From: a virus
Lineage: Duplodnaviria; Heunggongvirae; Uroviricota; Caudoviricetes
Virus record (IMG/VR): IMGVR_UViG_2617271072_000004
Span: 1 to 64,000 of that record
Length of the DNA: 64,000 nt
Direction: 5' to 3' (one strand)
Shown here: one piece after another, positions 1,241 through 40,215 of the stretch
How the letters are laid out: each line of letters begins with the position of its first letter
Numbering within the stretch: the first letter of the stretch is position 1
Notes under the pieces: model-generated
The model's database searches: none
What the model was told of the DNA's origin: nothing
What the model saw: only the letters and a program-made list of their open reading frames with translations
Program-made: the position numbers and the translations under genes

Positions 1241-1245
1241 TATAA

Positions 1246-2641: not shown

Positions 2642-2696
2642 TAATCCCTACCTATACCAACGATGTATTTTTAACTAAACAAAGAGGTTGTTTTTC

Positions 2697-10982: not shown

Positions 10983-11188
10983 ATACTAACAGATCGTCTA
11001 TGTGGCTAGAATCGTTCGAGTTTAGCGATTAACGGAAGTTCTGGTCGATTATGATTAGTGCATATTCATGCACAGGCACACAAAATCTGGAGATATTGAT
11101 CAGCGTTTATGTATAGTTTGTAATATAAAAATCGCCTTGAACGGAGTTTGTGCGTTATGAGAATCAATCTTAACTCTGGAGTAAGATA

Positions 11189-11557
11189 GTGGACGCTTTG
11201 TCTGAGGTTTTCGTTAATAATTGGCTTCCTGGTATCTGCACATTTTTTTTTAGGGATCTTTTATTCTAATATTGTTGAAAAAAAGAAACTTAAACAGAAG
11301 TTAAAGAATGATATTCTTGAGATATTCATTCCTGTATTTAACCCCGGAAATGAAATCTCCATTGAAATTGCTGAGAATGCTTACAGGAATATGAATGGTA
11401 CGTTTCAGTTGTACAAGAGAATATATCCAGGTATGTTCAACAAAGAAGCAGAGCGTGAGCTAGACCGACTACTAAAAGACGGTTTCCTCATAAATGGAGA
11501 GGTTAATAAGCATTACTTTGAACCAACTAATATTGAGAGCCTGATTAAAAGATTATA
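11189..11557 (+). CDS. small membrane-anchored protein, frame interrupted at a T9 run
   Basis: Removing one T from 11242-11250 joins a GTG-started hydrophobic N-terminus to the 55-codon ORF 11390-11557. Confidence 0.3.
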
Positions 11558-11576
11558 ACTCATTTACCACAGTTAA

Positions 11577-11600
11577 AACCCCGCTTCATTGCGGGGTTTG
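11577..11600. terminator. hairpin terminator between convergent genes
   Basis: CCCCGC-TTCATT-GCGGGG flanked by A-run and T-run. Confidence 0.5.
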
Positions 11601-11764
11601 CATCATGCGCCAATAAAAGCTATTTATTCTGCGTCAAGTTGTAACATCTAATCCACTATTATATATCGTTATGTTTGGCATATAACAGATAATTAAATGA
11701 ATTATATCCAGATCTAATTTTATGCGGTTCTGGAACCCGGCTACGTACTATATAATAGAAAAAA

Positions 11765-13220
11765 TCAGAGTCTATCAAAAATAGAGCCTTTTCTCGGTAC
11801 AAATATTTTCTCATACAGTCGAGTAGCGTAATCATCTGTCATGCCTGAAACATAGTCGCAAATGACGCGCATTTTTTTATCATCACCTTTTGCTTCCTCT
11901 TGATTATATTTCTTTCGAGTTTCTGTCGGGAGAAAACGTATTGGGTCATTTGCCAGTACATTGAATAGTTCCACAATCAGTTTCTGACCTTTGAACTCTA
12001 ATAGTTGGACGTTTTCGTGCTGAATAACTTTGTTCCTAACCAGCTCAAAAATGGCTTTACGTAACTCTTCTACCGCGGCAGGAAGTGCCACTTTATAGCG
12101 TAAAAATTTTACTTTTGAAATCAGAGTTCTGCACTTCAAGCTTAACGCTAGTGATCATCAGATGAACAAGTGTCCCTATGCACTCCTTGCGTAGATAACT
12201 TTCGCCGAACAGTTTTTCAGCTACATCATCGGCTTTTAGATTAAACGAGTCGCATTGGCAAGCTGCAAATAAATGGGATTTGTCCTCGAAGTGCTCCTCC
12301 CACATTTTTTTGTCGATCATCTTCAGAGAAATTGCGTCTTCAAGATCATGGAGTGAGTAGGATATCTCATCAGCCAAGTCCATAATCGTTGTATCCAGTG
12401 CTTTATATATTGTTTCCTTGTGCTTATTCAACGCGGTAGTTTTTACCGTTTTGAATAACTTAACATCATCACTATCAAAAGGTTGGAGTGCGAATCTAAC
12501 AGTGTTCTCCTCAGAGTCCAGGTAACATTTCGGGGGCTTAAATTCGGATGATTTAAACAACCACTCATTGCTTCTTGGCTGTAACTGGCTGTAAGCCCTC
12601 TCATTGACGACCTCTGAATAGCTTGCTGGATATTTCAGTACGCCTAAAATAAGTCTACGGGTGGGATCCAGCCCATTGGTTTCGGTGTACTTATCCAGTT
12701 TGGAGAGTATACGCAGTGTCTGCCCGTTACCTTCAAAGCCGCCATAGGATCTCATGCAGTAGTTTAGTGCGACCTCACCACCATGACCGAAGGGGGGATG
12801 TCCTATATCATGAGCAAGGCAGATAGCCTGCATCAGGCTTGGGTCAGGTAAGAATTTACCCCCCTCATCTGTATCGCGCTTAGACAACTGAGACAAGATA
12901 CCGCCGCCAATTTGCGCTACTTCCATAGAGTGAGTTAGCCGCGTACGGTAGAAATCGCTTTCGCCCAATCCCAACACCTGCGTCTTCGATTGTAATCTCC
13001 TAAAAGCGGAAGAGTGGATTAACCGGGAAAGATCACGTTCATACTCCGACCTTATCTCATTCGGGCGGGTGGTATTGTACCCTTGACGCTCATACCAAGT
13101 ATTTTCTTTGCAGTGTGTCATACGTGTTCCTTTGGGCAGGATAGAGCAAGTCGCCTGCTTAATTGCTGAAGAAAGAAATACAAATTTGTAACGCTGTGGA
13201 TCTTCTTTATGCGTCCACAA
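11765..13220 (-). CDS. Dgt-family dGTP triphosphohydrolase (HD domain), apparent frameshift near 12101-12116
   Basis: RRLQSKTQV, RTRLTHSMEVAQ, HDIGHPPFGHGGE, FEGNGQ and C-terminal DYVSGMTDDYA motifs; ORFs 12093-13220 and 11765-12139 overlap in different frames. Confidence 0.85.
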
Positions 13221-13301
13221 TCAGTAAATATTGGATACTTGCAAGGTGCGCGAAACACTAAAGATTGTCAATTAATAATTAACACCTCTTATAGTTACTA
13301 G

Positions 13302-13330
13302 AAATAAAAATCCCCTGTATTAACAGGGGC
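13302..13330 (-). terminator. rho-independent terminator after ssb
   Basis: On minus strand CCCCTG-loop-CAGGGG followed by TTTTTATTT. Confidence 0.6.
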
Positions 13331-13369
13331 CTGTGTATGAACTATTTACAAATAACTCACAAGTTAACT

Positions 13370-13858
13370 CTAAAACGGAATATCGTCGTCAAAGTCCATT
13401 GGAGGTTCGTTATTGGCGCTGCTCTGAGGTTTGCCGCCACCGCTGTATTGCTGGTGGTTTTGAGATTGGTTTGATTGCCCCCAGCCATTTGAGGACTGTG
13501 AATCGTCGCGGCGGGCGCCGATCATTTGCATAGTTCCGCCCTGGCTGACGATAATTTCCGTCGTGTAACGTTCTACACCGGCGTCATCTGTCCACTTACG
13601 GGTTTTAAGTTTCCCTTCGATGTAGACCTGAGAACCTTTTCGTAAATACTCACTCGCAATTTCAGCAAGTTTCCCGAACAAAACGACTCTATGCCATTCT
13701 GTTTGCTCTTTCTGTTGGCCCGTTTGCTTGTCGCGCCATGATTCATTCGTTGCGATGCTGAGTCTTCCGACCGCTCCGCCATTTGGTATATACCTGATCT
13801 CCGGGTCTTGCCCCAGGGTACCAATCAGGATGACTTTGTTTACACCGCGTTGTGCCAC
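13370..13858 (-). CDS. ssb: single-stranded DNA-binding protein
   Basis: [20 protein letters not shown]... OB-fold N-terminus, Gly/Gln-rich linker, DDIPF tail. Confidence 0.95.
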
Positions 13859-14871: not shown

Positions 14872-17603
<2,732 letters not shown>

Positions 17604-17670: not shown

Positions 17671-20600
17671 ATGAACAAGCTATCTATGGGGGTGTTTCGC
17701 TGTTCAAGTGTCAGCGAAATATTGAAATACATTAGTGCAATAACATCTCACCGAGCGCCGATTAGATACGGCGTGGAAAAGGTGGAAGGCAAAAGCTATG
17801 ACCGACTACGCCGGGAGGCGAATCAGAAGGCGATAGATTTGCTTAATTCGCTGGTGGACGGCGCGACACTGACAGATGAACAGCGCCAGATCCTGGCTGG
17901 GTACACCGGCGAAGGCGGCATTGGCGGGTCCGTCTCCGAATATTACACACCAAAGCCGATCGCTGAAGGTGTCTGGGAGATCATGAAGCTCTACGGCGCG
18001 GACGTAGGTAACACTCTGGAACCATCGGCGGGAACCGGCGTTTTTAATGAGACAAAACCGGTTGGTACGGTGATGACCGCGACTGAGATCAGCAGTGTTT
18101 CCGGTCGTATAAACCAGCTGTTGCACCCGGAAGACAGCGTACAGATTTCTCCGTTCGAACAACTGGCTGTAAGCACGCCTAACGATTCATTCGACCATGT
18201 TGTGGGTAACGTTCCGTTCGGTGGTCGTGATAACACACGCAACATCGATAAGCCTTACGCAGAAGAAACGGACATGGGTTCTTACTTCATGCTCCGCATG
18301 CTGGACAAGATAAAGCCAGGCGGATTCATGTGCGTGATTGTGCCGCCGTCCATTGTTTCAGGTTCAAACATGAAGCGGTTACGCCTGCGCCTATCACGGA
18401 AAGCTGAATTTCTTGGTGCCCACCGCTTGCCTACCGGTACTTTTGACGCAAACGGGACCAGTACAGTTGTTGATGTGGTGCTGATGCGCAAACATCCGGC
18501 AGAGATGGCTGAGAAAATCCCCCTGGTGGATGAAAGCACTCTCGAATCGGCAAATGTGCTTTGGCCAACGTTTATTTCTGGCAAGTGGTTTGAAAAGGAC
18601 GGCCGCCGGTTTGTTCATGGCACCCAGGAAAAGGGCTTCCAGGGGCGTATTGAGGTTCGTGCCGACGGTCAGATTGATAACCAGGCTCTTAAAGCGAAGC
18701 TGATTCATCGTTTCGAAAGCCGTATCGACTGGTCTTTGCTCGATATGGCTGAACCGTCACCGACCGCAGACGTTGTTGGTGAAGGGGAAATGCGCCTGAT
18801 TAATGGCGTATGGCAAAAATATGCTGGTGGTCGCTGGATTGAAGCTGATGCCGGGAAGGAACTTAAGATCGATGCTGCCAGTTATGGCGCGGATAGCTGG
18901 GAGGCTCTTCAGCGTAACCTGACTACAACAGAAGGCCGTCTCGGCATGACATTTACCCAGATGGCAAATGTCCGCGATAAGTACACCACATCAATCAGCG
19001 ACGATATGGTGCAGCTGGTGGACTGGATTAACAGCCAGCCTGAAAAATACCGTGAACGCTTGTATCGCGGGGCGATGATTGGCCGGATGTTAATTGAATA
19101 TCAGGACATGAAGGCCGCCGGGCATAGTGCTGAACAAATCGAACAGCAGCGCCTTTCTCTGGTATCCCGTTTGCAGGCAGAGATTGACCGTTTTGGTAAC
19201 CCCGGTCGCGGTCCGATAGCGAAATTGTCGGGGAGCGGTGCGCGCGCCTGGTTTGCTTTCCGTGGTGCAATTAAGCTGGATGGCACTATTTCTGACGAGC
19301 TGACAGGGAAGCTGGTTACGCATGATTCCAGCGCAAGTTATGACTCCACCAGCTATCAGGACACCCTGCGTTATCTCTATAGCGATCTCACCCGCGATCC
19401 AATCCAGCTCGATGATTTCCGCCTTGCGTTTACCGGCGAACTGCCAGCCAGTGATGAAGAGTTGCTTAATTTATTGGCCAGCACCCCTGGTATTGCGGTT
19501 TCACCGTATGGCGGGATTGTTCCGTTCGCCCGCGCCACCAGCGGCGACATTAACGAGATAGTGGCTCCAAAACAGGAATTCCTCGCCACACTCCCCGACG
19601 GTCCAGTAAAGAACAACGTCCTTAATCAGCTGGCAGCTATCGAAGAGAAGCGCATCAAGACGCCAGCAGAGAATATCCGGTTTAAGCTCAATAGCCGTTG
19701 GTTCGACCGTTCCGTCATTCTGGAATTTTTGCAGGAAAACGGCTATCCGGATCTGCGCTATGTGCAGTCAGTGCAGCTGGAAGGCGACGAAATGGTTTCT
19801 GACACCTATCACGGTGGTGATGGTCTGTTCGTCGGGCACCGATACGGTGTCGTCCAGCGCAAGGATAAAGAAACAGGTGAGATTCGCTACGAGTGGGACC
19901 GTAAATCAGGTGAAAACGCGACCGGGTTCCCGGCACAGCTGGAAAAGTATCTCAATGGTGCGCGTATCGGTGGCAAAGATAGCGCGACGGCGAACGGCTA
20001 CCGCGAGCAGATGGCACTGCTTGAGGACCAGTTCAATAAGTGGATCAAGACGCACGATCGCTACGATGAGCTGGTTGCCAAATACAACGATGTGTTCAAT
20101 AGCAATATCCCGTATGAACACTCTGGCGATCCGCTTGGGTTGAAGGGATTAAGCGGTAAGCGCCAGCCATTTGATTACCAGAATAGCGAGGTGCGCCGAC
20201 TGTCCGAAGATGGGCGCGGCATCCTGGGCTTCGGCACCGGGCTGGGTAAAACCACGACCGCGCTGGCGCTTGAGGCGTTCAACTATGAGAACGGTCGCTC
20301 CACCCGTACTGCTTATGTAGTGCCTAAATCAGTGCTGGAAAATTGGTATTACGAAGCAAAAGAATTCCTGAGTGAAGAGGCATTCAGTAACTACTTGTTC
20401 GTCGGTCTTGATGTGCTGATGGATGGCGATCAGATTCGCCAGGTGCCGGTGCTCAATGAGAACGGTAAACCTGTTCTTGGTACTGATGGCACTCCAGTTA
20501 TGCGCGATGCTCTTAAGCTGGCAGATGAAGCCACTATCACGGCGCGGATGAACGCGATCCCGCACTCAAATTACCGTGCAGTCGTGTTTACCAAAGAACA

Positions 20601-23600
20601 ATACGCCCGCATTCCGCTACGTGATGACACCGTAGATGAGCATGCACAAGACATGCTTTATGACTTCGTTGCCGCCGGGCGCGTAGCCAGCGCAATGGAC
20701 TCCGACTCCCACCGCAAAGAGGCGGCGCGTCGCCGGGTATTGTCGGAGTATTCAGATACCGGTACCGAAAAAGCAGAGAAGTATCCGTACTTTGAGGATA
20801 TGGGCTTCGACAGCGTGATCGCCGACGAAGGCCACAACTACCGCAATAGCTATAAAAATGGTCGCGAAGCGTCACAGCTGGCCTATCTGCCCACCAGCGC
20901 GGTGGCGCAATCGGCGCGAGATATGGCAATCAAAAACGCGTACCTGATGAAAAAGAATGGCGGGCGCGGACCGGTTCTCCTGACTGCAACGCCAGTCGTT
21001 AACACCCCGATCGATGCATACAACATGCTTTCTCATGTTCTGCCGAAAGAATACTGGCAGAAGATGGGGATCTACGGTCCTGATGACTTCGTTAAATTCT
21101 TCGGCAAGACCAGGCTGGAAACGGTACAGAAAATCAGCGGTGAAGTTGAAGAAAAAATGGCGCTGGTGGGCTTTGAAAACCTTGATGCGCTGCGCGGCAT
21201 ATTCCATCGCTGGACAACGCTTAAAACAGCGGAAGACGTTAAGGATACCGTGGAGATCCCGGAGCTGGACGAACACCAGCAGGATGCGCCACTTACTGAA
21301 GAACAACTGGCGGCGTATGAAGAATTGCGTCAGCAGGCGGAAGCGGCAGCCAAAGCCAACAATGGCGTAACGACCTCGGTCAATGAAGACGGCGTGATTG
21401 AGCACGAGAAAGCCCGTCCGATCTTCTCAATAATCAGGGATATGGACCGCGTATGTACTGACATGGACCTGTACTATCGCCGGATCACCTATCGTTTCCT
21501 GCCGGAGTACGCCGATGCGGTGCAGCAGCTGGCGGACAGTTTGCCTAAACAAGCCACCAGCGAAGACGACGACAGTGATGATTCAATCACGCAGCAATCG
21601 CAATACTCCCTGATAGATAAGGGCGAGTTTATTCAGTTGCAGGTTCCGGAAGCGTTCGAGCAGGAAGTGAATAAGCGCCTGGCCAGGTTTGGCATTGACG
21701 AACAGACCGTAACTCACCCCGTTACACCAAAATACGCGAAGCTGATCGCCACGCTGAAGGAGTTTTTCCCGGAAGGTAAGCAAATCATCTTCACCGATGA
21801 AAAAACGCAGCACCAGAAGCTCAAGCGCATTATCTGCAATGCTCTTAACCTTGAACCTTCAAAGGTGGGGATCCTGAATGCTCAGACGGTTGCCGAGGCA
21901 GGTAAAACCGGTAAGAAACTGAAAGCGGTTAAACCGCCGAAAGAGTTACCGGATGAACCAACAGATGCACAGATAGCGAAATACAACGAGCAAATGGCTC
22001 TGTATGACGCCTATATCGCGCAGCAAAATGAAATGTCGCTGGGCGGGCTGGAAAAGATTGCTGCCGACTTCCAGGAGGGACGGACTCCGATCATCATCTG
22101 CAACAAAAAGGCAGAGGTGGGTATCAACCTGCATCGAGGAACGACTGACATCCATCATCTGACGTTGCCATGGACACCAGCCAGTATCGCACAGCGTAAC
22201 GGTCGCGGTGCCCGAGTTGGCTCCAACCGTGCAAGCGTTCGCGTTCACTACTACTGCGGCAAGGGTTCTTTCGATGAATACCGACTGAAGACGCTGAAGC
22301 GTAAAGCAGGCTGGATCTCCGATATCCTCCGTTCAGATAAGTCAGAAATGGAGAACGCCGACGCCAACGATATGATCGAAATGCAGATGTATACCGCTAA
22401 GGATGATGGCGAACGTCTGGCAATGATGCAGGTTCAAATGGATAAGGCGAAAGCCGCGCAACGCGCTCGCCAGAAAGAACAGGCTACTATCGACCTTCAG
22501 AACTACATCAAGGCGCAGCACGCAGCTGGCGAGGATGTGGAGGTACTTACCGCTGAATTAGAGCGAAGCAAAGCGGAACTTGAAAAGACCACCGCCGAGG
22601 TAGCTAAATTCAAACAGGCGGTAATGGCCAAAGCAGCTGATAACGCAGACTGGAAAGCCCGCTGGGGTAGCGTCCATCACACAGACCGTACGTTGTTAGC
22701 ACAGTATCGCGCGTCGTTGAAAAGCGCCATTCAGCGCAAGGCTAATATCTCTCAAGCCATCTCCCGCTATGAGAAATTATTGAACCGTACTCAGAAGGCC
22801 GCGACGGATATCAAACGCCTGCGCCCGCTGGTGGAGGATGCAATAAATAAAGGCATTCTGGATGTTGATCCTGACCTGGTTAACCATGCGAGTGAGTTCC
22901 TTGTTATCGGCGATCGCTCATGGCGTGTAGGCCAATACTACGATTGTGCCGGTGATATCGTTCGCATTAAGTCGCTGGACTTCGACAGCCAGCGCGCAGA
23001 CGTGGAGATTATCTTTACCTTCAAAGGTACCAAATCGGGTAACTGGGATGTGAAGACGCTGGATAAACAGGTTGATGTAACTCCCGATGAAGATGCTGTT
23101 ATGCAGAAAATCAGTGGTGGCGTCTCCATCGCCGGGATTAACGACATCATTTCCTGTGACGATTTCTACCGTTTCCAGCAGCGCGGCATGATCAAAATCA
23201 CTGACTCATACGGCGTTCAGACTACAGAGTCAGGCTATAGCATCGATTTTGTTGGTACCTATTCGGACCCACTGAAGCATGCGGTTTACCCGGATCGCCG
23301 TGACGGCGCGCTGAAGTCGTCAATTGCAAAATGGGTGCTTGGTATGATGTCGGAAGGGAATAACCGCCAGATCCGTTCGGCAGAAACATTCCTGGTTGAA
23401 CTGTTTGGCTCCAATTATGGCGATGTAATCGCGTCATACGGAGATACGCTATCCCCTGAAGCAATTCAGGAGAAAATAGCGGATGCGATCGCCAGAATGC
23501 CGGAAAAAACAAGCCAGGGGGCTACTCGTAACGGGGATTCTGAACTTGAAGTCACCAATGCCATTTTCGGTACCAATGAGTTCCGGGCGTCAGATTATGA

Positions 23601-24438
23601 GATCACCACAGCACAGTTTGGCACCATTGGCATTTACAGCAATAAAGACGAGATCAAACAGTCAATGGACGCTGCAAGCGCGCGCATTGCAGCAGAACGC
23701 AAAGCCAATCTGAATCATGCAGTTTCCGCGCTGACTCAATCGTGGGTAACAGCAATCAGGGAGGCCGCCACCACAGGAAAAATCACACCGGCAATTGCGG
23801 ATGTCGTAAACGACGGCTCTAAATTTATGGATGCCTATAAAATGGATGCGGTGCAGTTGCCATCAGCCTATGGTCAACTCAGCTATCGCATGACCTACAA
23901 CCTGGTATCAATGTTTTCCGACCTTGCCATCCTTGGGCTGGTGGATCTTAACGAGGTTACGCCGGAATTGCTCAGCATGCGCAAGAATCATGTGGAGATA
24001 TTGCAGAGAATTAACACGGTTCTTGCCGGGCGCACCGATGAAGAGAAACAGGCCGACGCTGATCGGATAAACCTGGCCCTTGGCAACATCACGGAGGAAG
24101 AGATTGCCGCCAGAAACGAGAAACAAGAAGAGTTATCATCAATACAGGGTGATGCCACCAGCATAGCTCAGTCTCTTGGTCTGAATTATCGCGTATCCAC
24201 CGCCGACCTGAAGATGATGTACGCACCAAAATTCGCCGCTGGCGAGGTATTTGGGCTTCAGGAAGCCTCAGGCATGAAAGGCGTTCTTTTCCGTGCGAAA
24301 GACGCAATCAAGGCGAAATTCGGCGCTCGCTGGCTGCCAGCGAAGGCGAAGAACAGCGATTTCCCGGGTAACTGGTGGATTATCGAGACAAAACACAACG
24401 TGGCGGACGTTCTGGCCGTCATCCAACAATACGCATAA
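17671..24438 (+). CDS. darB: DarB antirestriction methyltransferase-helicase
   Basis: 2255 aa, the size of P1 DarB; N-terminal NVPF methylase-like motif, central DEGHNYRN and TATPVVNT helicase motifs. Confidence 0.9.
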   Translation: MNKLSMGVFRCSSVSEILKYISAITSHRAPIRYGVEKVEGKSYDRLRREANQKAIDLLNSLVDGATLTDEQRQILAGYTGEGGIGGSVSEYYTPKPIAEGVWEIMKLYGADVGNTLEPSAGTGVFNETKPVGTVMTATEISSVSGRINQLLHPEDSVQISPFEQLAVSTPNDSFDHVVGNVPFGGRDNTRNIDKPYAEETDMGSYFMLRMLDKIKPGGFMCVIVPPSIVSGSNMKRLRLRLSRKAEFLGAHRLPTGTFDANGTSTVVDVVLMRKHPAEMAEKIPLVDESTLESANVLWPTFISGKWFEKDGRRFVHGTQEKGFQGRIEVRADGQIDNQALKAKLIHRFESRIDWSLLDMAEPSPTADVVGEGEMRLINGVWQKYAGGRWIEADAGKELKIDAASYGADSWEALQRNLTTTEGRLGMTFTQMANVRDKYTTSISDDMVQLVDWINSQPEKYRERLYRGAMIGRMLIEYQDMKAAGHSAEQIEQQRLSLVSRLQAEIDRFGNPGRGPIAKLSGSGARAWFAFRGAIKLDGTISDELTGKLVTHDSSASYDSTSYQDTLRYLYSDLTRDPIQLDDFRLAFTGELPASDEELLNLLASTPGIAVSPYGGIVPFARATSGDINEIVAPKQEFLATLPDGPVKNNVLNQLAAIEEKRIKTPAENIRFKLNSRWFDRSVILEFLQENGYPDLRYVQSVQLEGDEMVSDTYHGGDGLFVGHRYGVVQRKDKETGEIRYEWDRKSGENATGFPAQLEKYLNGARIGGKDSATANGYREQMALLEDQFNKWIKTHDRYDELVAKYNDVFNSNIPYEHSGDPLGLKGLSGKRQPFDYQNSEVRRLSEDGRGILGFGTGLGKTTTALALEAFNYENGRSTRTAYVVPKSVLENWYYEAKEFLSEEAFSNYLFVGLDVLMDGDQIRQVPVLNENGKPVLGTDGTPVMRDALKLADEATITARMNAIPHSNYRAVVFTKEQYARIPLRDDTVDEHAQDMLYDFVAAGRVASAMDSDSHRKEAARRRVLSEYSDTGTEKAEKYPYFEDMGFDSVIADEGHNYRNSYKNGREASQLAYLPTSAVAQSARDMAIKNAYLMKKNGGRGPVLLTATPVVNTPIDAYNMLSHVLPKEYWQKMGIYGPDDFVKFFGKTRLETVQKISGEVEEKMALVGFENLDALRGIFHRWTTLKTAEDVKDTVEIPELDEHQQDAPLTEEQLAAYEELRQQAEAAAKANNGVTTSVNEDGVIEHEKARPIFSIIRDMDRVCTDMDLYYRRITYRFLPEYADAVQQLADSLPKQATSEDDDSDDSITQQSQYSLIDKGEFIQLQVPEAFEQEVNKRLARFGIDEQTVTHPVTPKYAKLIATLKEFFPEGKQIIFTDEKTQHQKLKRIICNALNLEPSKVGILNAQTVAEAGKTGKKLKAVKPPKELPDEPTDAQIAKYNEQMALYDAYIAQQNEMSLGGLEKIAADFQEGRTPIIICNKKAEVGINLHRGTTDIHHLTLPWTPASIAQRNGRGARVGSNRASVRVHYYCGKGSFDEYRLKTLKRKAGWISDILRSDKSEMENADANDMIEMQMYTAKDDGERLAMMQVQMDKAKAAQRARQKEQATIDLQNYIKAQHAAGEDVEVLTAELERSKAELEKTTAEVAKFKQAVMAKAADNADWKARWGSVHHTDRTLLAQYRASLKSAIQRKANISQAISRYEKLLNRTQKAATDIKRLRPLVEDAINKGILDVDPDLVNHASEFLVIGDRSWRVGQYYDCAGDIVRIKSLDFDSQRADVEIIFTFKGTKSGNWDVKTLDKQVDVTPDEDAVMQKISGGVSIAGINDIISCDDFYRFQQRGMIKITDSYGVQTTESGYSIDFVGTYSDPLKHAVYPDRRDGALKSSIAKWVLGMMSEGNNRQIRSAETFLVELFGSNYGDVIASYGDTLSPEAIQEKIADAIARMPEKTSQGATRNGDSELEVTNAIFGTNEFRASDYEITTAQFGTIGIYSNKDEIKQSMDAASARIAAERKANLNHAVSALTQSWVTAIREAATTGKITPAIADVVNDGSKFMDAYKMDAVQLPSAYGQLSYRMTYNLVSMFSDLAILGLVDLNEVTPELLSMRKNHVEILQRINTVLAGRTDEEKQADADRINLALGNITEEEIAARNEKQEELSSIQGDATSIAQSLGLNYRVSTADLKMMYAPKFAAGEVFGLQEASGMKGVLFRAKDAIKAKFGARWLPAKAKNSDFPGNWWIIETKHNVADVLAVIQQYA

Positions 24439-25157: not shown

Positions 25158-25239
25158 TAATCATTTAAAGCCCATATGATATGGGCTTAAACAACAGGAT
25201 CGATATACAGTGTTAGTTAAATATATAGGCGAGAGTTAT

Positions 25240-26250
25240 ATGGAAAAACCTTGGCCGGGCATGCACATTAGAACATCTTGTCTGGAGGATGGTTTCTTTA
25301 GAGCAACGCAACCAAAGTATCTTAATGATCCGTCGAGTGAGTCGCGACTTCTTCCATTTTTTAATAAATTTTCACCAGCCGATTACGCATGGGCTAGAAA
25401 TGAATTTAAGAAAATGCAACGAGATCCATCTTATGTCCCATCTATACAAGAGTTAGAGTATTATTTAAAACCTTGCGGGAAACGATACGGAGAGGATTTT
25501 CCACACTTGTTAATCAATGAAGGTTTTACCTCAATGGATTCATATGATGAATCTAAACTCCAAGAAATAGTAACGTACCTTAACGATTATTTAGTAGAAG
25601 CCGTAAGCTGTCATCTTGGTGTATTCTCTCTATCAAAAAGTGATTGCAATCTACACATGTGGACTCATTATGCATCGATAGGAAAGGGGTTTGCTGTAGT
25701 TTTCGATGAAACACACGATTTTTTTAAAATATATCGGCCGTGTGATGTTAGTTATAATCCAGAAGATAGAGCATCTGTAACCTATTATAAAGGCGCTGTG
25801 CGATTTAATGGCTATCCTGCGCCATCGAGGAATATAGATATAAAGAATAAAGATAATACATTGCATGGGATCTTAAATCGAGATCCAGTTCGCGAGCTTT
25901 TTATTAATAGGCTTCTTTATACAAAAGGTGAAGAGTGGCTTCCTGAAAATGAAAGTAGAATTATTTTTCCATTGGCTGATTGCGAGAGAAAAATAGGAAG
26001 CATTGTCTCTCCATCGATTGATGATTGCCTATTGAATGAGTATCCTGATGTTTTTCATGACTATCATGAAATTAACTTAAAGAAAATTCCTTTTTCTGCA
26101 TTCAAGCAAATTACCTTAGGGTATAACATGACTGAAAAAGATAAAAATATAATTTTAGATAAAGTTAGTTCGAATAAAGAATTGTCTCACGTCAACGTAT
26201 TACAATCAAAACTTGATATATACGGAAAGGTTGTGGTTAAGCCCATGTAA
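25240..26250 (+). CDS. DUF2971-like protein, AT-rich cargo gene
   Basis: VFSLSKSDCNLHMWTHYASIGKGFAVVF matches the FSxS...MWxHYA motif recalled for DUF2971; ORF track starts at GTG 25210, ATG 25240 preferred. Confidence 0.55.
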   Translation: MEKPWPGMHIRTSCLEDGFFRATQPKYLNDPSSESRLLPFFNKFSPADYAWARNEFKKMQRDPSYVPSIQELEYYLKPCGKRYGEDFPHLLINEGFTSMDSYDESKLQEIVTYLNDYLVEAVSCHLGVFSLSKSDCNLHMWTHYASIGKGFAVVFDETHDFFKIYRPCDVSYNPEDRASVTYYKGAVRFNGYPAPSRNIDIKNKDNTLHGILNRDPVRELFINRLLYTKGEEWLPENESRIIFPLADCERKIGSIVSPSIDDCLLNEYPDVFHDYHEINLKKIPFSAFKQITLGYNMTEKDKNIILDKVSSNKELSHVNVLQSKLDIYGKVVVKPM

Positions 26251-26347
26251 TAATACGCTTATGTCTACACTTCATGATAAATACCTTCCTTAACTTAGGA
26301 AGGTTAGTTGTGGGTTTACGCAGAAAGTAACAAATAACCTTCGTAGG

Positions 26348-26989
26348 TTATAGAATATTATTCTTTCCGGTGAGTATTCCTTGAGGAACTCTAGCGCATC
26401 CCATAATTTGAGTTTTCTTGATGATGTTTATATATGACGCTATCAGCGATGAGTCATCACGACTATCCACTTCAGAAGCCATTGCCCTGATGTACTCGGC
26501 GCTGGCAACGTTGTTGTATTCCGTCGCAAAGCAACATAGTAACGTCAGAACATGCTCTGTCGTTATTTCGCTCCAGTTGATGTTGAAAAATTCATCGCCT
26601 TTTTTATCGTGTTCGGAATCGAAGATGCTTTGGTGGAGGATGTATTTGCCGGATTCCTTGCGCGGTAACTTGATCGCTTTCTGGCGTTCCAGCTCCTTGT
26701 AAATCTGCATTGCTTCAATCAGTACCGGCCTGCCGTTCATGAAGGGATCGCGCAACCTTACACGCTGGCCAACTCGACCAGTAATAAAGCTGTTTTCCTC
26801 TTCCACCAGCACGATAAAACCCTTTTCCTCTTTTTCTCGCAATTCGCGCAGCAGCTGGAGTTCCATATCGCGGCGGCGTTCAGGGTAGCTGGTCCGCTCA
26901 GCCATTATCAGCTCGTTATTGATCCATGCAGCAGTCATTGACGCCGGTTTGCCGACGCTCATCGAAACAACGCATATTTTCTTATCCAT
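26348..26989 (-). CDS. hypothetical protein
   Basis: 213 aa from MDKKICVV with AGGGGG RBS; ORF track extends to 27136. Confidence 0.55.
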   Translation of the reverse strand: MDKKICVVSMSVGKPASMTAAWINNELIMAERTSYPERRRDMELQLLRELREKEEKGFIVLVEEENSFITGRVGQRVRLRDPFMNGRPVLIEAMQIYKELERQKAIKLPRKESGKYILHQSIFDSEHDKKGDEFFNINWSEITTEHVLTLLCCFATEYNNVASAEYIRAMASEVDSRDDSSLIASYINIIKKTQIMGCARVPQGILTGKNNIL

Positions 26990-27178: not shown

Positions 27179-27439
27179 TTAGTGCATGATGTTTGCCATC
27201 TCATAGGCGTCAGCCAGTAACTCCATCTCTGACTTGTTCAGCAAGGTGAATTCTTTCTTGCCTCCAACCACACCATCGGCATGAACAGGGACCAGCCAGG
27301 GGTATTTTTCTCTTACTTCAGCCGGTGCTGCATGCTGGTGGTACCATCTACAAAGTGGCAACTGCTTTTTGTGACAACCCGGCGCGGTACGACCGGAGAT
27401 ATGGTGCAGAGACACCTCTTCAGATATTACTCCATGCAT
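27179..27439 (-). CDS. hypothetical ORF abutting the Tn3 truncation point
   Basis: 86-aa ORF; may be the remnant of a backbone gene. Confidence 0.3.
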   Translation of the reverse strand: MHGVISEEVSLHHISGRTAPGCHKKQLPLCRWYHQHAAPAEVREKYPWLVPVHADGVVGGKKEFTLLNKSEMELLADAYEMANIMH

Positions 27440-28458
27440 ATAGCAGGCAATGCAGGGGAGAGCGCCAATGCAGATTTATCCAGATCCTTCAGCGAGCGGA
27501 GCCGTTTTTTCTGCCCAATCTTTCTGGCGTCACGGATGATAACGGCCAGCATGGCGTCCAGAACGTCCAATGCATCATCCAGCGCCAGCGTTTCCCATGC
27601 AAGGACAAAGGCAACCAGAACCGCCATCCTTTTCTGCGGTGACATCCTGGCAATATTGAACACCGAAGTCATACCAGCATAACGTGCGAGATTTTTCAGG
27701 CGCACAGCCGGGAGTGTACTCAGGTTTTCAGCATGCAGGCCAAAATCGTTCAGAGTTTTCCAGCGTTCAATTGCTTCATTAAACGCCGGACCACTGATGG
27801 TCACAGGGCCCTTTTTCAGTGATTCCAGTAAAGACAGGCGGCTGCAATCAGTTGGCCCCAGCAGCATCTCCAGCTGTGAACGCTGTTCGGCTGACGGTAT
27901 CAGTGCCAGTTTGTTCCACAGGCGCAACGTCGCCTTTTCCCTTACCTCTGAAATCAACCGGGTCAGCGTAGTGGCTCCGGGGAGAATAATACGATGTTGC
28001 ATAAGCCACCCTGTCGCCAGATCGAAAAGCAGGCCAGGACGTTCGTTGCTTATCCAGCTCCGGGTATATAAAAGACGGGTAAGGCGAAATGTCCAGGGCC
28101 AGGCAAATTCACGATACTGATAGTGCTGACGTATCAGCGCTGCATGCTCACGGCGGGTATTTTCCCTCTGACCGTATTCTGCAAGAACGGTGATATCACG
28201 AATCCCGAGCTGTCTGGCGGTAAAATGCCGGACGCCGGAAGGAATATGATTCATATCGGTGAGGAAGGTGCCCAGAAAACGGACACATCCAATTTGCAGG
28301 GCAATGCCCAGACGGTTGTGATCACCTCTGCTTTTTCCGATAAATTCCTTGTCTGCTTCATCAAGGTGAAAATATCGTGCCAGCTGAAGCTCATCCGGTT
28401 CACCGGTGAATCTGCCATAGCTTTCAGTCTGCTCAGTGGTCAGAAAGTCAACGGGCAT
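27427..28458 (-). pseudogene. tnpA: Tn3 transposase, N-terminal ~340 aa only
   Basis: MPVDFLTTEQTESYGRFTGEPDELQLARYFHLDEADKEF... Full TnpA is ~1000 aa. Confidence 0.9.
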
Positions 28459-29180
<722 letters not shown>

Positions 29181-29341
29181 TACGATAGGTTAATGTCATG
29201 ATAATAATGGTTTCTTAGACGTCAGGTGGCACTTTTCGGGGAAATGTGCGCGGAACCCCTATTTGTTTATTTTTCTAAATACATTCAAATATGTATCCGC
29301 TCATGAGACAATAACCCTGGTAAATGCTTCAATAATATTGA

Positions 29342-30214
<873 letters not shown>

Positions 30215-30323
30215 CTGTCAGACCAAGTTTACTCATATATACTTTAGATTGATTTAAAACTTCATTTTTAATTTAAAAGGATCTAGGTGAAGATCCTTTT
30301 TGATAATCTCATGACCAAAATCC

Positions 30324-30361
30324 CTTAACGTGAGTTTTCGTTCCACTGAGCGTCAGACCCC
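30324..30361. repeat. Tn3 38-bp right terminal inverted repeat
   Basis: CTTAACGTGAGTTTTCGTTCCACTGAGCGTCAGACCCC. Confidence 0.9.
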
Positions 30362-30771: not shown

Positions 30772-31804
30772 CTAGTCGCCATCTTCCAGCAGACGCACCA
30801 TTGCCCCCGTTTCACTATCCAGGTTACGAATGTAGTTCATGACAATATTTACGTTGGTCCAGCCACCAGCTTGCATGATCTCCGGTATTGAAACTCCGGC
30901 GCGGGCCATATCTCGCGCGGCACCGACACGGGCACTATGTCCAGACCAGGCCAGGTATCGCTGACCAGAGTCATCTTTTGCCCCGTAAATCAATCGGTGA
31001 GTTGCTTCAAAAATCCCTTCCAAGGCGCGAGTTGATAGCTGGCTGGTGGATGATGGCGCGGCAACACCATTTTTCTGACCCGGCAAAACAGGTAGTTATT
31101 CGGATCATCAGCTACACCAGAGACGGAAATCCATCGCTCGACCAGTTTAGTTACCCCCAGGCTAAGTGCCTTCTCTACACCTGCGGTACTAACCAGCGTT
31201 TTCGTTCTGCCAATATGGATTAACATTCTCCCACCGTCAGTACGTGAGATATCTTTAACCCTGATCCTGGCAATTTCGGCTATACGTAACAGGGTGTTAT
31301 AAGCAATCCCCAGAAATGCCAGATTACGTATATCCTGGCAGCGATCGCTATTTTCCATGAGTTGAACGAACCTGGTCGAAATCAGTGCGTTCGAACGCTA
31401 GAGCCTGTTTTGCACGTTCACCGGCATCAACGTTTTCTTTTCGGATCCGCCGCATAACCAGTGAAACAGCATTGCTGTCACTTGGTCGTGGCAGCCCGGA
31501 CCGACGATGAAGCATGTTTAGCTGGCCCAAATGTTGCTGGATAGTTTTTACTGCCAGACCGCGCGCCTGAAGATATAGAAGATAATCGCGAACATCTTCA
31601 GGTTCTGCGGGAAACCATTTCCGGTTATTCAACTTGCACCATGCCGCCCACGACCGGCAAACGGACAGAAGCATTTTCCAGGTATGCTCAGAAAAACGCC
31701 TGGCGATCCCTGAACATGTCCATCAGGTTCTTGCGAACCTCATCACTCGTTGCATCGACCGGTAATGCAGGCAAATTTTGGTGTACGGTCAGTAAATTGG
31801 ACAT
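30772..31804 (-). CDS. cre: Cre tyrosine recombinase, reading frame broken three times
   Basis: MSNLLTVHQNLPALPVDATSDEVRKNLMDMFRDRQAF... Indels vs canonical cre at runs 31692-31696, 31382-31383, 31070-31074. Confidence 0.9.
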
Positions 31805-32220: not shown

Positions 32221-32254
32221 AGATAACTTCGTATAATGTATGCTATACGAAGTT
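32221..32254. other. loxP recombination site
   Basis: Exact ATAACTTCGTATA-ATGTATGC-TATACGAAGTTAT. Confidence 0.98.
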
Positions 32255-32299
32255 ATTAGGTCCGAAGAGGAGTTTACGTCCAGCTGCGCATAAAAATCA

Positions 32300-32957: not shown

Positions 32958-33809
32958 ATGATAAATTATGTCTACGGCGAACAACTGTACCAGGAGTTCG
33001 TCAGCTTCAGGGATCTCTTTCTAAAAAAAGCTGTTGCACGCGCCCAACACGTTGATGCCGCCAGCGACGGTCGTCCTGTTCGCCCGGTTGTCGTTCTGCC
33101 GTTCAAAGAAACGGACAGCATTCAGGCTGAAATTGATAAATGGACTTTAATGGCGCGGGAACTGGAACAGTACCCAGACCTCAATATCCCAAAGACTATT
33201 TTATATCCAGTGCCTAACATCCTTCGCGGTGTGCGTAAGGTTACGACTTATCAGACAGAAGCTGTGAACAGCGTCAACATGACCGCTGGCCGCATTATTC
33301 ATCTGATTGATAAGGACATTCGCATCCAGAAAAGCGCGGGGATCAATGAGCACAGTGCGAAATACATAGAGAACCTGGAAGCAACAAAAGAGCTAATGAA
33401 GCAGTACCCGGAGGATGAAAAATTCCGTATGCGTGTACACGGCTTTAGCGAAACAATGCTGCGCGTCCACTACATTTCCAGTAGCCCTAACTACAATGAT
33501 GGTAAATCAGTTAGTTACCATGTGCCGCTGTGTGGTGTGTTTATCTGCGATGAAACTCTCCGTGATGGAATCATCATCAACGGTGAATTCGAGAAAGCAA
33601 AATTTAGCCTTTATGACTCTATAGAACCGATCATCTGCGACCGCTGGCCGCAGGCAAAAATATATCGCCTGGCAGATATTGAAAATGTAAAAAAACAAAT
33701 TGCCATCACTCGCGAAGAGAAAAAGGTCAAATCAGCCGCATCAGTTACGCGCAGCCGTAACACTAAGAAGGGGCAGCCAGTAAACGACAACCCCGAAAGC
33801 GCGCAATAG
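32958..33809 (+). CDS. c1: C1 primary repressor
   Basis: 283 aa starting MINYVYGEQLYQEF, recalled as P1 C1. Confidence 0.9.
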   Translation: MINYVYGEQLYQEFVSFRDLFLKKAVARAQHVDAASDGRPVRPVVVLPFKETDSIQAEIDKWTLMARELEQYPDLNIPKTILYPVPNILRGVRKVTTYQTEAVNSVNMTAGRIIHLIDKDIRIQKSAGINEHSAKYIENLEATKELMKQYPEDEKFRMRVHGFSETMLRVHYISSSPNYNDGKSVSYHVPLCGVFICDETLRDGIIINGEFEKAKFSLYDSIEPIICDRWPQAKIYRLADIENVKKQIAITREEKKVKSAASVTRSRNTKKGQPVNDNPESAQ

Positions 33810-33833: not shown

Positions 33834-35318
33834 TTATTCATTAAGCCATGCCAGAGCTTCATCAACCTGCGCTTCGTCTTCGACGCTAAGCACTTCATCC
33901 TGGGGAACATAATCAGCCAGCATAGCGAAACAATATGTATCCCAATGGTCTGGTGAGTGCAGGTTGAGTTTTTTCTTCATATCCTCCTTACTCATCACCT
34001 TCCATTGACCTGCGGAGTTAATCCCTACAGGGATTTTCGACGCTTCCTCAATAGTTTCATTACCCTTATCCAGTCTCATACGACCAGATTTTACGGCCTC
34101 TGCGGCTTGAACGTTGGCATAAGCACGTTTATCAAAGTACAGGCTCTTATCTTCACGGCTATGCATCTTTTTACCCCAGCGTATACGCTGTACGGTAATA
34201 CCATAATACTCGTACATCAGATCCGCCGTTGCTTTACCCAGGCCATCGCCGTCTATCGCTATGGTGATATTGGGGAATCGCTCAGGATTACATTCTGCGA
34301 AAATTTTGGCGGCAAGCTGCGTTTCTGTAACGTCTGTGTATTCCAGCATTCGATAGTTGATTACACGGCGTTTATTTCGCTGGCCGGACACCATCATGAT
34401 ATTGATAACGGACTTATCCCGTCCCGTACCACCAGCAACGTCCACACATGCAAGCCAGCCCCATCCTTTTGCAATCTTGACTTTCCGCCGCGTTGCACGT
34501 TCAACCTCATCACGCCCAAGAAGGAAGCCATCCTGTGATTTAGGGAATAGGCCGCGTACCTTAATCATGTACATAGGGTTATCACGCCCGCCGTACTCCG
34601 CCAGCTTCATTTTGATAAATGCTGGCGTTACCAACGGTGATTCCTCACTGTTAAGCGTGATCGCCGTATAAACGCCATCAGGGTTACCAGGACGCTTGGC
34701 CAGTTTATGGTGTGTATCGTAGAAATAGCCGCTTGGGCGTGTAGGCTGTGACAGCAATAAGATGCGGTTATCCTGTCCGGTAAGAGCACCGGTGATGATA
34801 CCGAAAGCTCTATCACTGACACCGGAGGCTTCATCGATAATATACAGAAGATGATCTGCGTGTTCACCGGCGAGAGCTTCTTCACTTCCCAGACGAAAGC
34901 CCTTCGGTACTACAGTCCATACACCTTTACCAGTAATCTCATAGAAAGCGGTTTCTGTCAGAACAAAATAATCAGCAAGCCATGGGAAACGGCTGGTGGC
35001 AGTAGCCCAGTTTATCTTGATGTACTTGAATATACCGGTCATTACCTGCTGAATTTTGTTCGCAACGATAATGGCACGGGCACCTGGATACATGATTATG
35101 AACAACATGATCATGATAGAAGTCATGTCTGATTTCCCGGTACCGTGACCAGACGAAACAGATGTCTTGCTACCCTGTTCCTGCACAGACTCAATAATCA
35201 GATCCTGCTGCCAGGTAGGTGTTTTGCCGAACAAAACATCAGCGGCAGCAATCCAGTCATAACGATATAGCGCCACCAGCTCGCGCCAACGTGGATCCGT
35301 TACGCAACTTCTGGCCAT
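33834..35318 (-). CDS. pacB: terminase large subunit
   Basis: 494 aa; overlaps pacA stop; convergent with c1. Confidence 0.8.
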
Positions 35319-36511
35319 TAATCATCATCCCCGTATAGCTTGCGGGTAACTTCTTCGTCTTCCTCCTCGTCTTCGTCCAGGTCTTGTTCCAGCCATGGGT
35401 CGTTTGATACACCTTCAGTATCAACATCTCCATAACCGCCTGTATCAACGATATCGGCGATTTCTTCCCTACGCTGCTCAATCCACAATGCGGCATCGGC
35501 GCGGCGGTTGGCGGCCCGTTCTCGCGCAACTTTGTCCAGATCTTCAAGAGAAGGGCCACCGACGGCTGTTTGCCTTTCCTCATCATCGGTATTGGTCTTA
35601 GGAGCACGCAGATCGGCTTTGATTTGCTCCAGCATCAGGGGCGGTACTTTCCCTCCATGCGCCTCGATGAATTCAGCTGCCTCCAGCACTGACCAGTTGT
35701 TTTCACGCTTTCGTTCGTATGCCAGCTTAACAATGCCAGCTTGCCCCATAGACAAAGCGTGCTTTTCCGCCTCCCGGCTTTCTTTTCGATAGTTATTCCG
35801 GATGCTGTAAATGGTGTTGATCAGGCTGCTTATCTGCGCGGAACAGCTGTTTAGCATGCTCGCGATACGGTATTCAGGCGGAGTTCCTTCATCATCGTCT
35901 TTTTGCTGATCGCGCATTTCCTGAACCAAGCGAATACACGTATCCCTGGCGTTCTCCAGCATAAGGAGATGAGAGAGAGACTTTTCCAGAAGAGTGGTTT
36001 CCAGAACATCAGCCCCGGACCGACGCAACATAGCGCGCGCGGCCTTCCGCGCTTCAACGTTATCTATCAGGTAATCGCCAGCTTCGAATTCAAAGCGTTC
36101 ACCATCATCATCCAGGGTGTCGCGTTCCAGGCGATCACGTAAGGTCCGGTGGGCGCGGGTGATCACGTCATGATCATCAGAACGATCATTTATGCGCTTA
36201 TTCTGGCGCTTCGCGTTCTCGACTGCGGCACTGACAACAGCATTAACTCTTTGTTTTTCAGCCATTTCAGCCACAATGTGATCACCTGCACGTTGATCAT
36301 TAGCGTGATCAATGATCATGCTTTTTAGTGGTTTTCTGACAGGCTTATTTGGCTTACGGCTGTCCGCTGTTCCGGTGTCTTCTTTGAATGCACGGAGATA
36401 ACGACGTGCGGTGTTTGGGTTGAGATTAAACTCGGCGGCATATTGTGCGATGGTGTAACCACCATCTCGCGCCAGGCGAGCAAAATTCTTCTTGTGATCG
36501 TCCCAGGTCAC
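35318..36511 (-). CDS. pacA: terminase small subunit
   Basis: 397 aa with acidic C-terminus; contains the pac site. Confidence 0.8.
36158..36320. other. pac packaging site
   Basis: Two clusters of GATC-containing hexamers (36161-36189 and 36280-36319) about 100 bp apart. Confidence 0.75.
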
Positions 36512-36597: not shown

Positions 36598-37050
36598 TCA
36601 GATACGTGCGGATGTGGCATTACCGTAATGACGGTGCTGACGGACCACCTTATTGAAAAGTTGACGCGCCATCACCCAAGGCTGGTGCTCCCGGCGTTCC
36701 TTTTCGTCCTGCGTCATATAGAGTTCGTTCTGGAGTTTTTCATCAAACCGGCGCGGAGCGCGGCTGCGGCGAAAGAATTCAGGATTCAGAGAGTGGATCT
36801 GAAATCTACGTGGGCGTGTACTGTCATCAATCAAAACAGACGAATACTTAGACACAGCGATAGCCTTTAAGCGCAGATAAACATCGCGCTTATCGACATC
36901 CAGATGCGGGTATTCCTTTTCAAGAATTGCTGCGAGTTCTTTCGCTGATAGAAGAGATTTAGTGCGGATCATGTAATCCGCAATCTCGTACGATGTTATT
37001 CGTGAGTGATTTATTTCCATGAAGTGGCGTCCCTGCCAGTTAAGTAACAT
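36598..37050 (-). CDS. lpa: late promoter activator
   Basis: 150-aa ORF upstream of pacA; operator-like site upstream. Confidence 0.65.
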   Translation of the reverse strand: MLLNWQGRHFMEINHSRITSYEIADYMIRTKSLLSAKELAAILEKEYPHLDVDKRDVYLRLKAIAVSKYSSVLIDDSTRPRRFQIHSLNPEFFRRSRAPRRFDEKLQNELYMTQDEKERREHQPWVMARQLFNKVVRQHRHYGNATSARI

Positions 37051-37138: not shown

Positions 37139-38182
37139 TTATCTAACGCTCGACGAGTGACTTGTGATAGCGCCGACTCCAAGCGCGTAATCAAAGAACA
37201 ATCGTTGATGCATCGCCAGCCTACCGTGCGTCTTCTCCCAATTATCGCGGTCACGCTCAATATCACGCTGGCATGACTGGCACAGAGGAATAGCATAAAT
37301 GTCATGCGCGCATAATCGACTATGACGAACGATATAAGGCGTAATGTGAGCGCCAGCTCCCGCAGCTCCACAGCCACAGCATGGACGGGAAGCCACAAAG
37401 TCCATGTACTCGGGCAATTTTAGCGATTGAAGTTTTGGTATTTTGAAATGCGCCATACCTGGGTCGGAGTCAACATCCACAGGGCATACTTTTGCACGCA
37501 TCGGCGCGGCGCGTTCTTCCATCATCTGAACATATGCTGTAGCGCGATCGTCATACGGGCGAATATCCGCCTCTTTCAGAGGTCCGCTATCCTGCGGAGT
37601 AGCCTTCATCTTATTTATTGATATGCGGCAGACTTCTTCCGGCATCAGGTGCATCATGTTGCGCATGAAAGCCCACCAGCACAGCTCCTGAATACTTAAA
37701 TCATGGCTATTTGAAAGGCCCATTTCCTGACGGGCGACATCCAGTATCCAGTTAACGCGATTATTGTGCAGCGTTTCTTTCAGCTCATTAAAACCACGCA
37801 TCCGGTAATGGTTATCGTGATGCCAGCACAACAACACCGCGCTATTGTCTCGTTCAGCGTGGACAATATGGTTGTCACACCAACTACGATCTGCGGCCTG
37901 GCATTGACCCTCTTTCCTACGCAACCACGCCACCAGCGCGTCAATTCCACCAATACGGCGAAACAGTTCATCGCTGTTAAAAAACGGCTGCAACGCCTCA
38001 TTTGTTGCCATGGTTTGCTCGGTAACAACGAGGCCGTCTTCCATGTGCTCGATTAACTCACGCGGCACCGGCTCCATGATAAATTTACGGCCAGCCTCCA
38101 CCAGTTTTCTGACCTCCTGATCCACTTTGAACGTGGCGAGGCCAAGCTCTTTCTGTACAAAGGGAGTAATTACGGCTTTCAC
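37139..38182 (-). CDS. hypothetical Cys-rich protein
   Basis: 347 aa with CCGCGAAG...CQSCQ cluster. Confidence 0.5.
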
Positions 38183-38209: not shown

Positions 38210-38410
38210 TTATCTGCTGCCCGGCATTCTCTGTTTAAGCACAACCATTTCCTGACGGCATAACACAGCAATAGCGGTCCTGACTCCAATTTGCTTACCA
38301 ACCAGGTATTGCTTTACCTTGCGGCGACTCACGCCATCAAGAAGCATCTTTAACGCTTCAAGGGACAATTTGTTGTATTTGCGTGCCATTAATCTACTCC
38401 GCAGAACCAT
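38210..38410 (-). CDS. small hypothetical protein
   Basis: 66-aa ORF overlapping doc 3' end. Confidence 0.3.
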
Positions 38411-38774
38411 ACAATCTACGTAACGTGTCGGCGACAGAAGATACAGATATCTCGCCAGTCGCAGCGCCTACAGTAAGGTCTGCCAGTTCAGGTGAATCAA
38501 ATACCTGCACCCCGTTACGGCGTAGAAATAGCAGCGCGCTGTTTAGCGCGGTACGCTTATTGGCATCATTGAATATATGCCCTCTCGCTGTAGCCACCAG
38601 GTAGGTGGCGGAGACTTCGAAAAGGTCGGTGATCTCTTCGTAGGCAACTCTGGCCTGAACTCTCCCGATAATGGCCTCTGCCCTGCCCGGATCTGACATG
38701 CCAGGCAGGCCGCCGTAGCGGCTTATATTCGCATCATGAAGCGCAATAAGTTCTTCCGGTGATATATGCCTCAT
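38394..38774 (-). CDS. doc: Doc toxin (Fic-fold kinase)
   Basis: 126 aa [37 protein letters not shown]... Confidence 0.95.
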
Positions 38775-38995
38775 TATCGGTTAACCAGTTCCTTGTTGGT
38801 GGAGTCCAGGGTGTCAAACAGGGATGCAAATTCAGCATCCAGCGCCGCTTTTTTGTAGGCTTCGAAAGTAGCCTTGCTGACAATTACTGCTGGCTCACGG
38901 CCTCTGCGGGTGATTTCAACCTCTTCCCCGGCTTCAACATTGTTGAGCACTTCAGAAAGGTTGCCGCGCGCGGTACGGAAGTTAATGGATTGCAT
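38774..38995 (-). CDS. phd: Phd antitoxin
   Basis: 73 aa [35 protein letters not shown]...; stop overlaps doc start. Confidence 0.95.
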
Positions 38996-39067
38996 AAACA
39001 CCTCGTGTACTCGTTATGTGTACACAATTATAAACCTCACAGGCATAAAGCACCAGCCCTTTGCAGC

Positions 39068-39457
39068 TTAAATAACCGGACAATCATCAAACTCCCCACT
39101 TCGGGCATCATTGATGACATGAGTGATCACACCAAAAACAGCATTACTGCCCGTGCATCCATCGTCATCTACTGGTAACGCCTCTTTCTTCCCGGTGCTT
39201 AAATCCTCCAGGTGCTGGCGCGGATACTTCCTGTATCTCTTTATGCGATATTCACCCTCCATAGCGCACACAAGCAGCGAACCATCAACTGGAGTAAGCG
39301 AAGAATCAACCACCAGCAAAGCACCCTGCAATATTCCCTCACGGTGATGGCTATCAGCTGCCCGCATGAAGTAGGTTGCTGATGGATGTCTAATTATCTG
39401 CTGATCAAGAGAAATTCGGCTTTCAACATAATCCGCCGCAGGAGAAGGGAAGCCCAT
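39068..39457 (-). CDS. humD: UmuD-like SOS mutagenesis protein
   Basis: 129-aa ORF with LexA box directly upstream. Confidence 0.8.
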   Translation of the reverse strand: MGFPSPAADYVESRISLDQQIIRHPSATYFMRAADSHHREGILQGALLVVDSSLTPVDGSLLVCAMEGEYRIKRYRKYPRQHLEDLSTGKKEALPVDDDGCTGSNAVFGVITHVINDARSGEFDDCPVI

Positions 39458-39495: not shown

Positions 39496-39580
39496 TACAT
39501 TGAAAAGGCATAGTTTGTGAAAGCGGGGTTTGTAGGCGCGCCACGCTGGGGGCTAATCACATTTCTCCCCCATCTTGCCG

Positions 39581-39864: not shown

Positions 39865-40215
39865 ATGCACAATAACGTTCTCAATGTTAGCCGTTCAATT
39901 CAGACAATCAGAGACTGCACCAGTGTGGTGGCATCAATCCCATTGCGAAACAGCATAGACGAACTGCAAATTCGTGTATTGAATCCGAATCAGGCTAATA
40001 AGCAATTGCGCTTTATTTTGACGCTGAAAAGTGAAACAGAGGGGATAAAGCACAGCGTAAAAGTGTTTTCTGAGGCCATTCTGCTTAATGGGAAGCTCCG
40101 GCATCTGGTAAGGCCAGAACGTCAATATCCTGACGTCCTGGCGCGTGAAAAAGACCTTCTTTCTGAAGTTCAGGATAGGGTGATCGATTTCGTCAAATGC
40201 TATCCCCTGCATTGA
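39865..40215 (+). CDS. hypothetical protein
   Basis: 116-aa ORF. Confidence 0.4.
   Translation: MHNNVLNVSRSIQTIRDCTSVVASIPLRNSIDELQIRVLNPNQANKQLRFILTLKSETEGIKHSVKVFSEAILLNGKLRHLVRPERQYPDVLAREKDLLSEVQDRVIDFVKCYPLH

Follow-up and report, generated by a model that had tools for sequence, protein, structure and literature searches.

Two adjacent open reading frames occupy exactly positions 38394-38995 of the window (the whole 64,000-nucleotide stretch of DNA that was analyzed), the interval that a preliminary description had assigned to a phd-doc addiction module without stating its strand. Both frames lie on the minus strand. The antitoxin gene phd comes first (38774..38995, 73 aa), with its ATG at 38995 and its TAA at 38776-38774, and is followed immediately and with an overlap by the toxin gene doc (38394..38774, ATG at 38774-38772), which encodes a predicted Fic-fold kinase of 126 aa. 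The overlap of stop and start that had been described amounts to a single base: as read from the sequence, the junction is TAATG (38772..38776, minus strand; surrounding minus-strand text CGATAATGAGG), in which the A at 38774 is at once the last base of the phd TAA and the first of the doc ATG. This 1-base overlap suggests that translation of the two genes may be coupled. An alternative in-frame GTG at 39001, upstream of the phd ATG, would extend the antitoxin to 75 aa instead of 73; the ATG at 38995 was preferred because it gives P1 Phd exactly.

Several further signals were identified in the region and rejected. Antisense or shadow reading frames on the plus strand (38759-39178, 38383-38604 and 38874-39071) were not accepted as genes because the minus-strand frames, both of them 100% matches to proteins of solved structure, already explain the whole region, and because the substitutions that distinguish this copy are synonymous in the doc frame. 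A terminator-like match inside doc (38550-38535, minus strand) was also dismissed (one found, 1.7 expected by chance). No RNA family was found at the phd-doc locus with Rfam at the gathering threshold; at the same threshold, the sole RNA family in the 64-kb window was a tRNA-Met (CAT) at 62557-62632 (minus strand).

The match to the Phd and Doc proteins of P1 that had been proposed proved exact at the protein level, with 100% identity for both. When searched with phmmer against all PDB chains, Phd was 100% identical over its full length to 3hry_A (‘Prevent host death protein’; E 1.6e-42) and Doc was 100% identical over its full length to 3k33_A (‘Death on curing protein’; E 3.1e-78), a resemblance to the P1 proteins that far exceeds chance. 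The 100% identity of Phd extended to PDB chains of 3k33, 4zm0 and 4zm2 and to the solved structure 3hs2. In addition, Phd residues 51-73 matched 3dd7_B, a 23-aa Phd peptide co-crystallized with Doc (E 2.5e-08), and the C-terminal segment that neutralizes Doc (about residues 52-73) is present. Family assignments agreed with these matches, as Phd residues 1-51 scored 49.8 bits against Pfam PF02604 PhdYeFM_antitox (cutoff 29.8) and Doc scored 38 bits against PF02661 Fic (cutoff 24). Residues 66-74 of Doc read HIFNDANKR, which is the Doc-type motif HxFx(D/N)(A/G)NKR with Lys in place of the Fic Gly; K73 of this motif inverts ATP and makes the protein a kinase, not an AMP-transferase (PMC7180214). 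Judged by its sequence, the pair is a P1-type phd-doc type II toxin-antitoxin (‘addiction’) operon.

Each half of this pair has relatives in other toxin-antitoxin systems. YefM-YoeB and other members of the Phd/YefM family share the antitoxin fold family PF02604, FicT/FicA and other Fic-domain systems share the toxin fold family PF02661, and both groups share the antitoxin-first bicistronic layout (PMC4803016). However, the partner of YefM is a RelE-type ribonuclease, unlike in Phd-Doc, and FicT AMPylates gyrase and Topo IV, whereas Doc, with Lys in its motif, is an EF-Tu kinase (PMC7180214). The pair in the window is the canonical Phd-Doc combination. The Phd/YefM and Doc families were founded on phd-doc, and what lies here is already known and ordinary: the family's type member in its native genomic surroundings.

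At the DNA level, positions 38300-39100 were 98.6% identical to P1 (NC_005856) over 801 bp, gap-free, and the matching region carries a doc/phd annotation in 21 phage records (including P1, P7, SJ46, RCS47, D6 and JL22). The 11 differences from P1 comprised none in phd, six in doc, one in pdcA, two in humD and two in the spacer between phd and humD. All six in doc were synonymous, and across phd, doc, the promoter and the operators there was no indel and no amino-acid change. The module shares with that of P1 (P1_gp104/P1_gp105; PDB 3K33, 3HRY, 3DD7) the same proteins, the 1-nt overlap, the -10 box, the operators and the Shine-Dalgarno sequence, and the two differ only by the synonymous doc substitutions and the pair of promoter-region substitutions considered below. 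The nearest plasmid, pZ1323CEC0010-3 (NZ_CP148447), was nucleotide-identical across phd, doc and the control region, as was a second IncY P1-like phage-plasmid, NZ_AP018798. On a pO157-type plasmid, a more divergent copy with 94.6% identity also has both reading frames at full length and the same operator; Phd differs there by one amino acid and Doc by 12, every one of the Doc changes falling within the C-terminal third of the toxin (residues 89-126).

The promoter was located by way of the P1 annotation, which lists a ‘sigma 70 promoter Pphd’, and then read in the window sequence. Pphd (39027..39055, minus strand) consists of a -35 element TGGTGC (39055-39050), a 17-nt spacer and a -10 element TATAAT (39032-39027); a generic sigma-70 consensus scan did not find it because its -35 element is weak. 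A palindrome scan placed the operator palindrome TGTGTACACA, perfect over its 10 bp, immediately after the -10 box (39017..39026, minus strand) and an imperfect, phd-proximal one, CGAGTACACG, with two mismatches to its own reverse complement, at 39004..39013 (minus strand). These short abutting palindromes came from a custom scan, as a general inverted-repeat search upstream of phd reported none. A Shine-Dalgarno-like GAGGTG (38999..39004, minus strand; text ACGAGGTGTTTATG) was located 3 nt upstream of the phd ATG.

GAGGTG, the -35 and -10 elements and both operator palindromes are all identical to P1, and TATAAT, TGTGTACACA and CGAGTACACG sit where the annotated Pphd of P1 does, with both palindromes between the -10 box and the phd start. 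The perfect palindrome was kept in all four sequences compared (the window, P1, pZ1323CEC0010-3 and the pO157-type plasmid), and CGAGTACACG was likewise identical in P1, pZ1323CEC0010-3 and the 94.6%-identical pO157-type copy; following the P1 literature, CGAGTACACG would be a Phd binding site. The two substitutions relative to P1, at 39036 (in the Pphd spacer) and 39058 (upstream of the -35 element), lie outside the hexamers and operators and are common to pZ1323CEC0010-3. Overall, an autoregulated phd promoter with palindromic operators appears to be conserved, and the binding and repression expected of it follow the literature on P1 (PMC3920265, PMC4803016).

The genes around the module are arranged in the P1 order, pacB-pacA-lpa-pdcB-pdcA-doc-phd-humD-hot, with hot, a theta-subunit homolog, further on. 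Shared with P1 on the downstream side are pacB (33834-35318), pacA (35318-36511), lpa (36598-37050; Pfam BPP1_LPA), pdcB (37139-38182; DUF968) and pdcA (38210-38410), which overlaps the 3’ end of doc by 17 nt as in P1, and on the upstream side humD (39068-39457; Peptidase_S24). Nearby are an exact loxP site (32223-32256) and c1 (32958-33809), which scored 608 bits against NCBIfam phage_rep_C1. In contrast to this shared core, the wider surroundings are mosaic when compared with P1: the LexA-regulated gene lxr, which takes up about 570 bp in P1, is missing between humD and hot (window 39505-39578), the hot homolog is only 85% identical, the cargo is different and a transposon remnant is present. 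Just beyond hot, a 116-aa plus-strand reading frame (39865-40215) has no Pfam family and is annotated as ‘hypothetical’ in the closest plasmid.

Identity of the window to P1 itself was about 95-97%, whereas large blocks were 98-99.8% identical to circular, non-mobilizable IncY E. coli plasmids of 93-100 kb. For the IncY phage-plasmids pZ1323CEC0010-3 and NZ_AP018798, the flanks were 99.4-99.8% identical in large blocks; unlike these plasmids, the window contains a Tn3-family/blaTEM insertion and other cargo blocks. Searches of the phage, plasmid and complete E. coli genome collections returned no record that covered at least 80% of window positions 26001-51000. Overall, the window is a P1-like phage-plasmid of mosaic composition, and the phd-doc module is useful as an annotation anchor that marks it as such.

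The Tn3-family remnant, 2.9 kb long (27469-30361), is inserted in the ref-cre region; at this site the closest plasmid carries about 470 bp, among them the 3’ portion of ref. Its genes are tnpA in truncated form (27427-28458, minus strand), whose 343 aa match only the first third of the 954-position Tn3 transposase model (positions 2-314), a resolvase gene (28587-29180) and blaTEM (29354-30214; 665 bits, cutoff 625). At 30324-30361 the remnant ends in one exact copy of the 38-bp Tn3 terminal inverted repeat, and it is exactly there that homology to the reference plasmid resumes. Compared with TEM-1, the encoded enzyme presumably has a sole difference, R to S at linear residue 241 (Ambler R244S), which would make it like TEM-30 (IRT-2, inhibitor-resistant); its best-scoring mature PDB chain was 1lhy (‘TEM 30’). 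P1-like phage-plasmids with resistance genes have already been documented (PMC9600943).

The assembly contains many 1-nt homopolymer indels elsewhere, so its base-level accuracy is imperfect, and none of them lies in phd, doc or the control region. They split cre (30772-31804) into three reading frames (indels at 31070, 31362 and 31692) though loxP is exact. The indels likewise divide a head gene of 1710 bp (15884-17594) and truncate a gene of 1218 bp (55218-56288), and ban/dnaB (60905-62276), too, is seen as two reading frames. Relative to the 99%-identical pZ1323CEC0010-3, most 1-nt indels fall in A/T homopolymers (further sites at 16697, 56154, 56207 and others), and such a distribution suggests that the assembly contains homopolymer errors from sequencing and not true pseudogenes. 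If the apparent frameshifts in cre, the head gene, the 1218-bp gene and a dGTPase gene relative to the closest plasmid were real, the element would be degenerating, and the phd-doc pair could then be a silent or decaying, non-functional remnant on a defective element. We give this reading almost no credence, as A/T homopolymer frameshifts are typical of sequencing error, doc has only synonymous substitutions, and the absence of indels and amino-acid changes relative to P1 extends over both genes, the promoter and the operators.

We consider it very probable that the operon works as the P1 addiction module does, by post-segregational killing, because the window has, unchanged, every sequence element on which the P1-type scheme depends. 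No sequence evidence against an addiction operon was seen. The activities involved (toxicity, neutralization, proteolysis, EF-Tu phosphorylation and autoregulation) would be those published for the identical P1 proteins, for which PMC4803016 cites Lehnherr 1993 and 1995, Garcia-Pino 2010 and Castro-Roa 2013. Following this scheme, a single sigma-70 promoter would drive phd and then doc. Doc would be a stable Fic-fold kinase that halts translation, consistent with the arrest caused by its phosphorylation of EF-Tu at Thr382 (PMC7180214, PMC4803016). Phd would act as a labile dimer and a substrate of ClpXP (Lehnherr & Yarmolinsky 1995, as listed in PMC4803016), with a disordered C-terminus that folds onto Doc and neutralizes it; in the P1 proteins, this C-terminus becomes a helix on Doc and the N-terminal dimer contacts the operator.

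With its N-terminal domain on the two palindromic operator sites, Phd would also repress the operon, and Doc would serve as co-repressor or de-repressor according to the Doc:Phd ratio. At a low ratio Doc bridges Phd dimers as a co-repressor, and at a high ratio a non-binding Doc-Phd2-Doc complex forms, which is known as conditional cooperativity (PMC3920265, PMC4803016). In a daughter cell that did not receive the plasmid prophage, Phd synthesis would end, the leftover Phd would be degraded and the freed Doc would cause arrest, so that the low-copy plasmid prophage would appear very stable. This is the behavior described for P1, whose lysogens are low-copy plasmids stabilized by Phd-Doc, and Doc was named for the death of P1-cured cells (PMC7180214, PMC3920265).

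The module had also been read as support for a plasmid lifestyle, which is a reasonable but indirect conclusion for the carrying element. As an indirect argument it holds: the most closely related elements are circular plasmids typed as IncY that carry repA along with a ParA-type ATPase and ParB, the window carries P1 phage genes along with c1 and loxP, and among the places where the module occurs in complete E. coli genomes, 1245 of 1331 were on plasmids and 86 were chromosomal. On its own, however, the window does not establish plasmid replication, as repA, parA and parB gave no tblastn match in the 64 kb and the repA/par part of the nearest plasmid (record 1-3633) gave no megablast match to the window. 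The 667-bp module was present in 1233 of 5426 complete E. coli genomes (about 23%), on replicons of 64 to 164 kb, and this size range indicates that it is also common outside P1-like elements. Phd-doc is among the commonest plasmid-borne toxin-antitoxin modules of E. coli.

Whether killing of cured cells or plasmid competition is the selected function of such modules is debated in the toxin-antitoxin field. The breadth of replicon sizes and the chromosomal places show that phd-doc is not tied to one replicon, and this would fit an intact module whose main selected role is competition with, or exclusion of, incompatible P1-like or other plasmids, or an abortive-infection-type defense triggered when Phd decays after an infecting phage has shut off host expression. 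Doc also matched Fic-type candidate defense families in PADLOC (PDC-M59B, E 3.5e-07), the element bears other defense-like cargo (the dGTPase and a PDC-S31-like gene), and phage defense is counted among the roles of type II systems in reviews (PMC10532202). Nevertheless, the PADLOC matches of Doc are weak and Phd has none, and the documented phenotype of the identical proteins is stabilization of P1 lysogens by killing cured cells (PMC7180214, PMC3920265). Competition and defense, taken jointly, are very unlikely to be the main role, and we retain post-segregational killing as the function of the operon. The module also implies stable vertical inheritance of the cargo of the element, including the blaTEM gene and candidate anti-phage genes. 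It is unlikely, but conceivable, that phd-doc adds an abortive-infection or plasmid-competition role on a phage-plasmid that carries a TEM-30-like inhibitor-resistant beta-lactamase and defense cargo; if true, an addiction module would be helping to fix a transducible resistance/defense vehicle in E. coli without antibiotic selection.

The defense-like cargo is carried by two variable blocks. A dGTPase-type anti-phage gene (11765-13220, minus strand; PADLOC dGTPase, E 4e-113) is split into 375-aa and 124-aa reading frames, with Pfam HD_assoc on the downstream piece, and belongs to a variable cargo block (10981-13371) that is absent from the closest plasmid. A 346-aa reading frame (25210-26250, plus strand; block 25158-26476) matched Pfam DUF2971 and the PADLOC candidate PDC-S31 (E 2e-16), and its slot holds a RelA/SpoT-domain gene in the closest plasmid. 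Between these blocks, a 2255-aa reading frame (17671-24438, plus strand) with methyltransferase and helicase-like matches is DarB-like and presumably represents the P1 defense-against-restriction protein; the closest plasmid has it annotated as ‘N-6 DNA methylase’. Near the start of the window, positions 629-3269 form an invertible tail-fiber (C-segment-like) region without a megablast match to the closest plasmid, comprising a tail-fiber assembly gene (629-1240), opposed Collar-domain tail-fiber tips (1246-1743 and, on the minus strand, 2194-2625) and a Cin-type serine invertase gene (2688-3269).
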